Assembly (NCBI GenBank): GCA_963755025.1
Contig: CAVWIH010000014.1
Location: 192,001-256,000, forward strand
Source: an uncultured Actinomycetes bacterium
Lineage (GTDB): Bacteria; Actinomycetota; Thermoleophilia; UBA2241
Length of the DNA stretch: 64,000 nt
Direction: 5' to 3'
This document shows positions 59,274 to 61,717 of the stretch, one piece after another. The stretch's first letter is position 1, and the number at the start of each line of letters is the position of its first letter. The notes beneath the pieces were generated by a model, which was not told the origin of the DNA, did not search any database, and was given only the letters and a program-made list of their open reading frames with translations. Both the position numbers and the translations under genes were made by a program.

Positions 59274-59465
59274 GGCGACGGCTTTCCTTGGGCCGGCGTG
59301 CTCGCCGGCGAACGCCGTCGTCGGCAGGGCACGGATTTGCCCCGGCGCGGCCGCCTTGGCCTTACGTCGCCGGGCCTGTCGAGTCTACTCGCTCTCGCGG
59401 TCGGGCCTGCGTGTCGCGGCCCCAGGAGGTCGGTTCGTGAATGACAACGCCGGCGTTGGCCGAAG

Positions 59466-59481
59466 ATACCCATAGGGGTAT
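59466..59481. promoter_or_regulatory. CsoR/CstR/RcnR-family operator 1
   Basis: ATACCC-ATAG-GGGTAT palindrome with a G tract, 40 nt upstream of the ferredoxin ATG. Confidence 0.75.
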
Positions 59482-59521
59482 ATTGGTGGCCATCTTGGAG
59501 GCCGACCGCACGGAGTCCCGC

Positions 59522-59707
59522 ATGATCGTCGTCGACGACCGCTATTGTCCGCAGAACCACGCCTGTCCCGCCGTGGCCGCCTGTCCCGAAGGCGCCATGA
59601 CGCAGGACGGTGTCTCTGCCGCGCCGCGCATCGACCACGACCTCTGCACCGAGTGCGGGGTGTGCACGGGCCTCTGTCGCGTCTTTTCGCTGGTGCGCGA
59701 CGAATAG
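59522..59707 (+). CDS. Small 4Fe-4S ferredoxin-like protein (CPQNHxCP type)
   Basis: CPQNHACPAVAACP ... CTECGVCTGLC; RBS GGAG. Confidence 0.9.
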   Translation: MIVVDDRYCPQNHACPAVAACPEGAMTQDGVSAAPRIDHDLCTECGVCTGLCRVFSLVRDE

Positions 59708-59724
59708 GAGCGCGACCGCGCCCC
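59707..59724 (-). promoter_or_regulatory. Candidate bacterial SECIS hairpin
   Basis: GGGGCGC-GGUC-GCGCUCC beginning 14 nt after the UGA at 59740-59738. Confidence 0.5.
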
Positions 59725-59737
59725 GAGGTCAGCGACC

Positions 59738-59935
59738 TCAGCCGTAGCCGCCCGTCGGTACCGCACCACAGGTCGGCGCCGACAGAGGTCCGTTGCTGAG
59801 GAAGCTGCCCACCGTCTGGCGGACGTCGCTCGAGCCGCACTTGGGGCAGCGCTTCTGGCGGTCCTTGATCGCTCCGGCCGTCTCTACGACGAAGCCGTGG
59901 TCGCACGCCTTGCAGACCAGCTTGATAATCGCCAC
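59738..59935 (-). CDS. FmdB-like zinc-ribbon protein; would extend to 59729 if TGA encodes Sec
   Basis: RBS AGGAGG, GTG start; CKAC-N18-CPKC; tail SAPTCGAVPTGGYG, then TGA GGT CGC TGA. Confidence 0.88.
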   Translation of the reverse strand: MAIIKLVCKACDHGFVVETAGAIKDRQKRCPKCGSSDVRQTVGSFLSNGPLSAPTCGAVPTGGYG

Positions 59936-59961
59936 GGCATCCCTCCTGAGAATGACGTCAT

Positions 59962-59977
59962 ATACCCTAGGGGGTAT
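59962..59977. promoter_or_regulatory. CsoR/CstR/RcnR-family operator 2
   Basis: ATACCC-TAGG-GGGTAT, 26 nt upstream of the zinc-ribbon start. Confidence 0.75.
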
Positions 59978-60180
59978 CATAGTCCAAGGCGCCTTCGCCC
60001 TGCAACATCGCCCGCGCATCCGCGCGGGGCACAAGCGGCCGTCGGCGCCGGCGCGCCACGCACGGTGGCGCGCGCCGGCGCGCCACGTCACGGTGGCGCG
60101 CGATACCGCCGGGGTGTAGTCTCGCCCATCCAAAAGTCGACCGGCCCGCCAAACCGGGCCACCGAATCGGAGCGTGGGCC

Positions 60181-60507
60181 ATGAAGGGCACAGCAGACGT
60201 GCAGGCCGGCATCTGCGGGCACCACACGACCGTCGAGGCGCAGAGCGGCGATGCCCGTCGCGTGACGTTCACGATCGAGACGACCTGCGACAACATCGAG
60301 CGCTTCACGGCGCAGGTCGCGGCGGTCGTGCCCGTCGACGCCTACAAGGAGATCAACCCGAAGGCGTCGAGCGACGTGCTCGACTGCGGGCGCGAGGCCC
60401 ACATCTGCACCGACTGCATCGTGCCGGCGTCGGCGCTCAAGGCGTTGCGCATAGCGACCGGCCTGGCGCTGCCGGGCGACGCGGCCATCGCCATCGCCAA
60501 AGGCTGA
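60181..60507 (+). CDS. Cys-rich hypothetical protein (DUF6951-like)
   Basis: GICGH.T.V, IETTC..I, HICTDCIVP...KA....GLALP. Confidence 0.75.
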   Translation: MKGTADVQAGICGHHTTVEAQSGDARRVTFTIETTCDNIERFTAQVAAVVPVDAYKEINPKASSDVLDCGREAHICTDCIVPASALKALRIATGLALPGDAAIAIAKG

Positions 60508-60511
60508 CGCT

Positions 60512-61717
60512 TCAGGGCAGCTGCACCAGGCCGTTCTTCATCTTCGTCATGTAGTAGCGCTCGAAGCCCAGCTTGGCCCAATGCGACCAGGGCCCGGGGA
60601 TCATGATCTCGAACTTGCGCGGCTTGAAGACGCGGTCGAGGCCGATGATCATGCCCTGCGTGCCGGCGTCCATGATGCACAGCGGGCGGATGTCGCCGAA
60701 GGGCTTGACGATGGGCTCGGCCCCGGTGATGGCGGCGGCGATGTTGTGGGCCGTCACTTTGGCCATGACCTCGGCCATCCAGCCCGTCTTGGGCACGCCG
60801 GTCGGCACCTCGGTCGGGTGCGGCGGCTTGACCTGCACCGCGACCCCGGCGGCGTAGACATTGGCGAAGTCCAGATGCCGGTAGCCGTCGTCGACGGGCA
60901 CAAAGCCACGGGCGTCGCCGAGGCCGTCGGAGTCGAGGATGGCCTGCACGCCGGTGAACGGCGGAATGACGATGGCGTACTTGTGCTCGAGCACGCGCCC
61001 GTCGGACAGCGTGATGGCGCCCTTGCTCACGGCGCTCGTCGAGACGTTGGCGATCGCCTGCACGCCGAGCATCTTGAAGTAGCCCTTGAGCATGGCCTCG
61101 CCGCCGCGCATGCCGCCGATGCCGAAGTGGCCCAGGAAGGGCTCGGCGGTGAAGAAGGTGAGCGGCGCCTCGCGGCGGATCTTCGCCTGGCGCAACGCGC
61201 GGTCGATGTTGAAAGCCACCTCGTACTCGGCGCCGAAGCAGCTCGCCCCCTGGGTCGAGCCGATCACCACCGGACCGGGGTCCTGCACGAAGTCGAGCCA
61301 GGCCTTGGCGGCCTCCATGGCGTGGGGCAGGTTGCAGACCGACCAGGTGGTGCCGTCGGCCGGACCAAAGCCGGGCACGACGGCCCAGTCGTACTTGGGG
61401 CCGGTGGCGATCAGCAGGTAGTCGTAGCCGATCTCGCCCTGGTCTGTGATCACCTTGTTCTCGGCCGGCAGGATGCGCTCGGCCGTCGCGAGCGTGAAGT
61501 CGATGCCGCGGCGGCGCAGAGCCGGCTCGAGGGCGAAGCTGATCTGCCCGGGCTTGCGCCACCCGGGCACCACCCAGATGAGCGAGGGAATGAAGACGAA
61601 GCGCGGGTCGCGCGAGACGACGGTGACCTCGGCGCGGCCGTCGAGGTCGCGCTTGAGCTTGAAGGCGGCGCTCAGGCCGGCGAAGCTCCCCCCAAGGACG
61701 ACGATCCGTGGCGCCAT
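60512..61717 (-). CDS. sqr: Sulfide:quinone oxidoreductase
   Basis: VLGGSFAG, FIPSLIWV, YDYLLIATG, SVC, GASCFGAEYE, VPKTGWM, LCIMDAG, amphipathic C-terminus HWAKLGFERYY. Confidence 0.9.
   Translation of the reverse strand: MAPRIVVLGGSFAGLSAAFKLKRDLDGRAEVTVVSRDPRFVFIPSLIWVVPGWRKPGQISFALEPALRRRGIDFTLATAERILPAENKVITDQGEIGYDYLLIATGPKYDWAVVPGFGPADGTTWSVCNLPHAMEAAKAWLDFVQDPGPVVIGSTQGASCFGAEYEVAFNIDRALRQAKIRREAPLTFFTAEPFLGHFGIGGMRGGEAMLKGYFKMLGVQAIANVSTSAVSKGAITLSDGRVLEHKYAIVIPPFTGVQAILDSDGLGDARGFVPVDDGYRHLDFANVYAAGVAVQVKPPHPTEVPTGVPKTGWMAEVMAKVTAHNIAAAITGAEPIVKPFGDIRPLCIMDAGTQGMIIGLDRVFKPRKFEIMIPGPWSHWAKLGFERYYMTKMKNGLVQLP

Follow-up and report, generated by a model that had tools for sequence, protein, structure and literature searches.

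Does a UGA codon close to the end of a small zinc-ribbon gene encode selenocysteine (Sec), or does it terminate translation? This question is raised by a locus in a stretch of 64,000 nucleotides (hereafter the window) that covers positions 192001-256000 of contig CAVWIH010000014.1 (C14) in the 3.37-Mb draft genome of an uncultured actinomycete. On the reverse strand of the window, a frame of 65 codons encodes a protein with two CxxC motifs, CKAC (Cys8, Cys11) and CPKC (Cys30, Cys33), and ends in ...TCGAVPTGGYG, i.e. ...PTCGAVPTGGYG. The frame is followed by TGA (59740-59738), the codons GGT and CGC, a second in-frame TGA (59731-59729) and a hairpin with a GGUC loop. The initial annotation of this DNA interpreted the first UGA as a Sec codon that is served by a selenocysteine insertion sequence (SECIS) resembling that of the Escherichia coli fdhF gene, and all the sequence details on which it relied, namely the frame, the knuckles, the tail, the series TGA GGT CGC TGA, the stem, the loop, the coordinates and the distances, are present. 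The comparative analysis described here indicates that the UGA at 59740-59738 is very likely recoded as Sec. With a high degree of confidence, we regard the locus as a real selenoprotein gene, in which the GGUC-loop hairpin would recruit SelB and tRNA-Sec and which would give rise to a 68-residue zinc-ribbon product of the FmdB type. Moreover, the homologous loci very likely form a large, coherent and unannotated subfamily of the FmdB zinc-ribbon family, with a C-terminal Sec and the SECIS in the 3' untranslated region (UTR).

The most obvious alternative is that the first TGA is a real stop and that the protein has 65 residues. The hairpin would then be a terminator or an mRNA-stabilising stem, which is shared with the convergent gene for a ferredoxin-like protein. 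Homologous loci were collected in two ways. A six-frame search of 61 related genomes returned homologues in 51 of them, and 30 loci were taken for the inspection of the codons. Second, one genome per species was scanned with a sub-alignment of an alignment of 38 relatives, which yielded 78 loci, mostly from metagenome-assembled genomes (MAGs) titled Thermoleophilia or Actinomycetota. A TGA directly follows the G[FY]G-type tail in 30/30 loci of the related genomes, and it is the first stop-like codon in 78/78 loci of the other species' genomes; TAA and TAG never occupy the Sec position. This uniformity speaks against an ordinary stop codon, given that TGA accounts for only 56.5% of the stops in the genome under study and for 73% of the stops of the neighbouring genes in the 78 loci. 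The second in-frame stop is equally regular. It follows one or two codons after the TGA in 29/30 of the related loci, being TAG in two of them, and in 77/78 loci of the other species, of which seven have TAG or TAA. In contrast, a second stop is found so close in only 1.8% of 989 long open reading frames (ORFs) of the same genome.

The codon between the two stops is also conserved, which is not what a real stop at the first TGA would call for. Among 114 distinct sequences that were chosen by their tail pattern, the codon after the TGA specifies Gly in 91 and Ala in 13 cases (together 104/114). All four Gly codons are in use (GGC 74, GGG 6, GGA 6 and GGT 5), a spread that we read as third-position variation under amino-acid conservation. 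The final stop of the same sequences follows ordinary usage (TGA 98, TAG 11, TAA 5). A scan of metagenomes with a low-GC (guanine plus cytosine) member of the family returned 43 loci, which served as a natural control. Most of the complete control loci are ordinary FmdB-type genes ending with TAA, TAG or TGA without a close second stop, and of the tail type ...TPKKS / ...TSRKS, one member ends with TGA and one with TAA. Sec-type tails were found in 3/43 of the metagenome loci (42%, 42% and 57% GC). In these three, the TGA is followed by one codon and then by TAA or TAG, and a GU-loop hairpin is located 3' of the second stop.

The hairpin itself is the third conserved element. In the window, the stem starts 14 nt past the first UGA and the GGUC loop starts at +21. 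When the 30 loci are aligned, 97.6% of the cells in the seven stem pairs are paired. The three loop-proximal pairs are invariant, and three of the other four pairs show compensatory changes (GC to AU, CG to GC). The covariation score was reached by 0/500 shuffles, and it collapsed when the register was slid. In 26/30 loci, the first nucleotide of the GGUC loop lies 20-25 nt downstream of the U of the UGA. A simple hairpin finder identified, in 78/78 loci from other species, a hairpin with 5 bp or more in the stem and a GU in its loop; the G of the GU lies at positions 20-27 in 77/78 and at position 23 or 24 in 55/78 loci, and the window has it at position 25. The stops of the neighbouring genes in these loci, 220 in total, served as a control. 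Some kind of GC-rich hairpin was present behind 132 of these, a GU loop behind 19, and a GU at positions 20-28 behind 7. The upper stem GCGC/GCGC is near-invariant within the family. More distant subgroups possess other stems, for instance GGGGCCC-GUUG-GGGCCCC behind ...GFG-U-AH-stop, GACGACGC-GGUC-GCGUCGU and, on low-GC metagenome contigs, UUGGCC-GGU-GGCCAA and GAGACC-GUU-GGUCUC. The GU is nevertheless present in the loop at the same distance from the UGA throughout.

Taken as a comparison of sequences, these data indicate that the hairpin behaves as a SECIS and not as a generic terminator. The initial annotation had cautioned that a hairpin between convergent genes could be a terminator. This caveat is answered by the fixed distance between loop and UGA, by the absence of a T-run terminator in a scan of the consensus, and by the fact that the hairpin stays with the gene whether the context is co-directional, convergent or divergent, and also where the downstream neighbour differs. 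A second caveat concerned another hairpin, GAGGUC-GCU-GACCUC, which overlaps the UGA. The overlap is real and this hairpin is part of the minimum-energy fold, but it is absent from most relatives, which read UGAGGCUGA... at this place. Moreover, the proposed conservation and covariation of the SECIS hairpin could be confirmed. A scan of positions 59400-60200 against Rfam with E-values of up to 10 revealed no family and two chance-level matches at 60011-60028.

A recoded UGA presupposes the machinery for Sec insertion, for which the initial annotation had proposed a search. The genome encodes SelA (517.7 bits), SelB (330.1 bits) and SelD (351.9 bits), all of which score above the curated cut-offs. 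The three genes are clustered on contig C28 (C28:111226-114945), and ARAGORN identified one tRNA-SeC with the anticodon tca on contig C24. The selD gene contains one in-frame TGA at the ...KSG-U-ASK... site, where Sec usually occurs in SelD (...SGU...), and SelD is therefore a selenoprotein in this organism too. The use of TGA as a genome-wide sense codon was rejected, as TGA is the commonest stop of the 989 long ORFs (559, as compared with 34.2% for TAG and 9.3% for TAA); the genetic code is standard. The distribution of the gene agrees with that of selA. A selA match was obtained in 49/61 related genomes, and TGA forms of the zinc-ribbon gene were found in at least 39/61, of which 37 have selA. 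The remaining two, which gave no selA match, have a completeness of 74% and 51%. Ten genomes of at least 96% completeness gave no selA match, and none of them yielded a TGA form; five of the ten, all of one family (f2), possess homologues with Cys-rich tails and ordinary stops, e.g. ...SFGGGGCCGGACGGH. Since kin are not independent, the co-occurrence is to be regarded as a consistent pattern and not as a statistic. An ordinary stop codon does not explain why the TGA forms were seen only in genomes that have selA or are incomplete.

Several observations weigh against a Sec codon or limit what can be concluded. The hairpin is located between convergent genes in the window and could act as a terminator as well. 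The folding energy of the 81-nt stretch is ordinary (z = -0.89; 35/200 shuffles are equal), and it is the conservation of the TGA, the next Gly codon, the second stop and the GU-loop hairpin across relatives that we consider to exceed chance. The 12-mer GCGCGGTCGCGC occurs 38 times in the genome, while about 10.6 copies are expected from the base composition, and the core sequence alone is therefore not diagnostic. The possibility that the hairpin is a generic genomic repeat was weighed and rejected; only two of the 38 copies lie behind a zinc-ribbon TGA, with the third paralogue having a variant stem. One locus deviates from the pattern: at the end of a Thermoleophilia MAG contig (L042 = L122), ...SGFGGGF-TGA has no second stop nearby, and its GGUC hairpin follows just 14 nt after the TGA. 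Its tail looks like the result of a small duplication of GGCTTC; the locus also carries a second, regular copy, ...NRFG-U-R-TGA. The initial annotation had proposed to check whether homologues always have either TGA or a Cys codon at the Sec position. TGA is indeed constant, but Cys exactly in the Sec column was found in 0/134 short representatives among the best 150 of 3372 matches (searched as [FYW][GTS]-C followed by 0-3 residues to the end), which is unusual for selenoproteins. The Cys-rich tails of the Sec-free relatives align with the Sec form approximately and not column for column. Furthermore, the genome is a draft with 84% completeness and 5% contamination, and the functional part of our proposal, which is discussed below, is based on gene context, the independence of which is overstated by the synteny kept among related genomes.

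Some of these points, i.e. the convergent position, the unexceptional folding energy and the frequency of GC-rich hairpins behind the neighbouring stops, together with a public annotation that ends at the TGA, are what an ordinary 65-residue protein would have in its favour. Such a protein leaves the invariance of the TGA, the conserved codon beyond it, the close second stop and the fixed position of the GU loop unexplained, and we consider it very improbable. The reading of the UGA as Sec with an fdhF-like SECIS has passed all the checks proposed by the initial annotation that were run, including that on the Sec machinery.

The features of the locus and of the adjoining part of the contig are listed in Table 1. 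The match of the encoded protein to the Pfam model PF09723 (Zn_ribbon_8) is weak (29.7 bits, cut-off 34.4), as is that to the NCBIfam model TIGR02605 (FmdB family zinc ribbon; 28.9 bits, cut-off 31.3), and none of the selenoprotein-specific NCBIfam models matches it. Precomputed Pfam annotation assigns PF09723 to the window protein and to 11/13 other close relatives. In the 38 aligned relatives, the four ligand Cys residues, Gln40 and the Sec column are invariant. AlphaFold predicts a ribbon core of modest confidence (residues 1-45), with block means of the predicted local distance difference test (pLDDT) of 72-80 over residues 1-40, and a disordered tail (residues 46-65, pLDDT below 50). Foldseek returned weak, generic zinc-ribbon modules only, such as the N-terminal domain of MCM and HypA (best E = 0.014), and a sequence search of the PDB gave nothing better than E = 0.18. 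Among 113 distinct tails, 96 have their nearest preceding Cys at a distance of 7-11 residues from Sec, including 69 with a spacing of exactly 10, and 6 tails are devoid of Cys. A 551-nt contig of the DNA run X1, which corresponds to window positions 59300-59819, includes the tail, both TGA codons and the hairpin, and its sole substitution in this region is synonymous (59759, Val59 GTA to GTG). As X1 may be the sample behind the genome assembly, the contig does not provide independent support. Contigs of the RNA run X20 match the window at 60446-60600 only, outside the zinc-ribbon gene.

Table 1. Features of the zinc-ribbon locus in the window and of the adjoining 16 kb of contig C14 (L151, i.e. 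C14:256001-272000; positions marked L151 refer to that piece)
Feature	Positions	Strand	Remarks
Predicted zinc-ribbon selenoprotein, coding sequence	59732..59935	-	68 codons; GTG start, predicted Sec at codon 66, Gly67, Arg68
AGGAGG, Shine-Dalgarno-like	59942..59947	-	6 nt 5' of GTG 59935-59933; read from sequence
Putative zinc (or iron) knuckles	59837..59914	-	Cys8 59914-59912, Cys11 59905-59903, Cys30 59848-59846, Cys33 59839-59837
Cys56 codon TGT	59768..59770	-	In the disordered tail, 10 residues before Sec
UGA, predicted Sec66	59738..59740	-	TGA conserved in homologous loci; Sec machinery in genome
TGA, predicted true stop	59729..59731	-	Two codons after Sec
SECIS-type hairpin in the 3' UTR	59707..59724	-	7-bp stem, GGGGCGC 59724-59718 and GCGCUCC 59713-59707; GGUC loop 59717-59714
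7-Cys ferredoxin-like gene	59522..59707	+	61 residues from MIVV..., TAG stop; convergent, stop abuts hairpin
DsrE/DrsE_2	L151 62-595		Pfam match
HdrB-like CCG-domain protein	L151 606-1583		Pfam match
HdrC-like 4Fe-4S protein	L151 1580-1894		Pfam match
975-residue flavo-iron-sulfur protein	L151 3923-6850		Pfam match
TusA	L151 7113-7415		Pfam match
ArsR, second copy	L151 7488-7994		Pfam match; divergent from paralogue 2
Pyridine-nucleotide disulfide oxidoreductase	L151 9038-10366		Pfam match

What could such a protein do? The window copy belongs to a group of 17 closest loci (L013-L029), in which the genes nearby include an ArsR-type regulator in 12/17 and a gene for a ferredoxin-like protein with seven Cys residues in 9/17 loci, and further typical neighbours encode a YgaP-like membrane protein, OsmC and a methyltransferase. 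Around the window copy, genes for an SQR-like flavoprotein, DUF6951, YeiH and a DsrE-like protein are found. The ferredoxin-like protein, which gives weak matches to the Pfam family Fer4, contains seven invariant Cys residues in the motifs C-x5-C-x5-CP and CxxCxxCxxxC. The mechanically called ORF (59441-59707, plus strand) has 88 codons; however, M-I-x-V occurs about eight residues before CPQNH in all nine relatives, which places the start at 59522. Contigs of the DNA runs X1 and X3 have an extra C after 59516, just upstream of this start. The 3' end of the ferredoxin-like gene and the start codon of the zinc-ribbon gene overlap in five loci, which suggests translational coupling of the two genes. 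In the genus to which the window belongs, the genes are convergent or divergent and still adjacent. A complex prediction for the ferredoxin-like protein (61 residues) and the 65-residue product gave a very low score, which is neither support for nor evidence against binding. The widespread third group (78 loci) is found in another context. For these loci, one representative per cluster of neighbours was scanned, with an ORF caller that can pick antisense ORFs. The zinc-ribbon gene is divergent from genes for CcdA/DsbD_TM (59), a TlpA/ResA-like redoxin (55) and an FAD_binding_4 protein (47), and epimerase and TPR/CcmH-type genes are located downstream, with NiFe hydrogenase genes in some loci.

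All these contexts involve thiol, sulfur or cytochrome c maturation chemistry, and a mobile Cys/Sec arm for redox reactions or sulfur transfer is therefore proposed; the Cys 10 residues upstream of Sec and the tail modelled as disordered suggest the same. In the proposed mechanism, the GGUC-loop hairpin beyond the true stop would recruit SelB and tRNA-Sec, which would decode the UGA at 59740-59738 as Sec. The resulting product of 68 residues would carry a disordered C-terminal arm, Cys56-x9-Sec66-Gly-Arg-COOH, which may act in a swinging-arm manner as a mobile thiol/selenol redox carrier or sulfane-sulfur carrier and cycle via a Cys-Sec selenenylsulfide. The arm might serve an ArsR-controlled sulfide/persulfide cluster that comprises the SQR-like flavoprotein, OsmC, DsrE-like proteins and the YgaP-like membrane protein, with TusA and Hdr-like proteins encoded nearby, and the 7-Cys ferredoxin-like neighbour would be the most likely redox partner. 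It is tempting, but rather unlikely to be correct in full, to go one step further and to assume a class of minimal selenol-arm carriers. Such carriers would consist of a metal-binding anchor of about 45 residues and a Cys-x9-Sec-Gly-COOH arm and would pass electrons or sulfane sulfur between dedicated partners, i.e. the coupled 7-Cys ferredoxin-like reductase of the ArsR operon or, for other paralogues, the CcdA/ResA-type thiol pathway of cytochrome c maturation. The class would make up a substantial unannotated share of the selenoproteome in soil and peat Thermoleophilia and reach into low-GC lineages.

A different function would follow if the gene encoded a Sec-containing precursor of a modified peptide, in which the zinc ribbon is a leader or recognition domain and the tail rich in Gly, Ser, Cys and Sec is modified or cleaved. 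The tails are indeed of low complexity and rich in Gly, Ser and Cys, and the tails of FmdB proteins resemble bacteriocin precursors according to the description of TIGR02605. A "selenobacteriocin" family with Sec is also listed in Table 1 of a recent review (PMC13188914). However, the conserved neighbours include no maturase (radical-SAM or other), protease or exporter; they are the thiol, sulfur and cytochrome c maturation genes described above. The precursor hypothesis, to which we assign a very small probability, is compatible with Sec insertion and disputes the function alone.

The sulfur-handling island does not end with the window but runs past its right end, as judged from the Pfam matches in the next 16 kb of the contig (Table 1). 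In the divergent promoter region between the zinc-ribbon gene and the DUF6951 gene (window positions 59960-59977 and 60045-60108), the AT-rich palindrome ATATACCCTAGGGGGTAT precedes the GTG start codon of the zinc-ribbon gene by about 25-43 nt, and two direct copies of CACGGTGGCGCGCG, 28 nt apart, lie inside GC-rich palindromes. These elements represent candidate operator sites and may serve the nearby ArsR.

The window copy is not the only one of its kind. The genome contains three Sec-type zinc-ribbon paralogues, all on contig C14, of which two lie outside the window, at C14:92544-92753 (plus strand) and C14:264107-264319 (plus strand; L151:8107-8319). One of them ends with ...GGFT-U-GS-TGA, has a CGGGCG-CGUG-CGCCCG hairpin and is flanked by an FAD_binding_4 gene and, on the opposite side, by an epimerase/TPR-CcmH pair. 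The remaining copy ends with ...SPFG-U-G-TGA, has a GGCGC-GGUC-GCGCC hairpin and is divergent from the second ArsR gene. Tandem arrays of two or three zinc-ribbon genes, in which Sec-type and stop-free members are mixed, were observed at L034:2076-2276 with its adjacent copies, G033:C3:331483-332243 and G031:C4:551511-552271. The metagenome loci L153, L156 (42% GC) and L159 (57% GC) have tails such as ...GGFFT-U-R-TAA and ...GVPR-U-K-TAG and GU-loop hairpins of their own; thus, the subfamily is not confined to Thermoleophilia. A 3.4-kb contig titled "Deltaproteobacteria bacterium" (L079) encodes a protein that is near-identical to those of Thermoleophilia, which is probably due to a binning error rather than to transfer. 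Among cluster representatives at 50% identity, 51 of the best 150 of 3372 matches end abruptly in x[FYW][GTSR], which we interpret as the signature of truncation at the TGA.

The initial annotation had predicted that standard gene callers would stop at the TGA, and this is borne out by the two NCBI records that were examined. These records, for members of 66 and 70 residues, are named "FmdB family zinc ribbon protein" and "zinc ribbon domain-containing protein" and contain no residue past the TGA. The names given by JGI range from "putative FmdB family regulatory protein" and "hypothetical protein" to "ferredoxin", "Fe-S-cluster-containing hydrogenase component 2" and "rRNA maturation endonuclease Nob1". 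Because of this truncation, the residue that is likeliest to be reactive is missing from the databases. The subfamily is thus very likely widespread and mis-annotated in soil and peat Actinomycetota, and the selenium use of Thermoleophilia, as annotated in the examined records, would miss at least these genes. The near-invariant core of the putative SECIS offers a simple handle for re-annotation. With Sec one or two residues from the C-terminus and the whole element behind the stop, the genes would also provide a compact bacterial case for SelB-dependent recoding beside a termination codon. Moreover, the neighbouring genes suggest a role as a small, mobile selenol carrier, both in the handling of sulfide and persulfide and in the thiol pathways of cytochrome c maturation, an idea that the pairing with the ferredoxin-like gene makes directly testable.

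How does the predicted selenoprotein compare with known systems? The SECIS of the E. coli fdhF gene has a GGUC apical loop, in which G23 and U24 are counted from the U of the UGA, lies inside the coding region and contains a bulged U. The geometry of the GU loop is alike in the zinc-ribbon family, whereas the whole element of the family is located in the 3' UTR. Mammalian thioredoxin reductase, a large flavoenzyme, carries a C-terminal Gly-Cys-Sec-Gly arm, in which Sec is penultimate and Cys is adjacent to it. By analogy, the window protein would have Sec followed by Gly on a flexible arm and a Cys that may form a selenenylsulfide; however, its Cys is 10 residues away, the arm is attached to a zinc ribbon of 45 residues and the two proteins are not homologous. 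The members of the FmdB family (PF09723, TIGR02605) share with the window protein an N-terminal CxxC-x17/18-CxxC ribbon of about 40 residues and a low-complexity tail, and Sec-free relatives in this family have Cys-rich tails such as ...GGGGCCGGSCGCGG. In contrast, the window protein scores just below both cut-offs and has the tail C-x9-G[FY]G-Sec-Gly together with the TGA and the predicted SECIS.

A literature search for zinc ribbons and selenoproteins returned nothing relevant, and the "FmdB" of another paper (PMC11227280) is formylmethanofuran dehydrogenase, a different protein. An FmdB-type selenoprotein has been listed before. In the GOS (Global Ocean Sampling) marine metagenome, the listing of 2008 includes a "Putative regulatory protein, FmdB family" with 2 reads, 807 Cys homologues and a CxxU motif (Zhang and Gladyshev, PMC2398784). 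The corresponding entry in a review of 2022 gives the motif as U/CxxU (PMC9312934) and that in a review of 2026, which carries no accession, as "UxxU, 2 Sec" (PMC13188914). This last entry and the series TGA-GGT-CGC-TGA in the window would agree with two Sec residues (U-x-x-U) and a protein that extends past 59729, but this is the least probable of the alternatives, as the second stop is TAG or TAA in 7/77 loci and 16/114 sequences, its position shifts by one codon with no conserved frame or stop beyond it, and the frame in the window would cross the hairpin and then continue for over 30 codons into the ferredoxin-like gene in antisense direction. According to these entries, the GOS protein belongs to the same superfamily as the window protein (COG2331 / TIGR02605) and is likewise predicted to have Sec and a bacterial SECIS. 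In the family described here, a single Sec is predicted; it is part of a G[FY]G-U-G tail and lies one or two residues before the C-terminal end, and the CxxC knuckles never contain it. As TGA-GGT-CGC-TGA can be written as UxxU, the GOS listing may represent this C-terminal form, misread, or equally well a form with Sec in a knuckle.

Closer parallels for the position of Sec are provided by families that are unrelated in fold. KCU-star (NF033934) and UXX-star family 2 (NF041211) have Sec 0-2 residues from the C-terminus, as here, according to Table 1 of the review (PMC13188914), and in such proteins the SECIS must therefore sit behind the real stop codon. NF041210 was tried as the model for "UXX-star family 1" and turned out to be wrong, as it describes a histidine kinase. 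The best matches of the NF041211 model in the genome are on contigs C19 and C21 (32.9 bits, cut-off 100), with none at the zinc-ribbon loci. UXX-star family 2 shares a GxGU motif with the window family, but NF041211 is a glutaredoxin-like family, and the other families with C-terminal Sec named in that review, KCU-star, HgcB and SaoC, likewise have folds that are unrelated to the zinc ribbon (PMC13188914).

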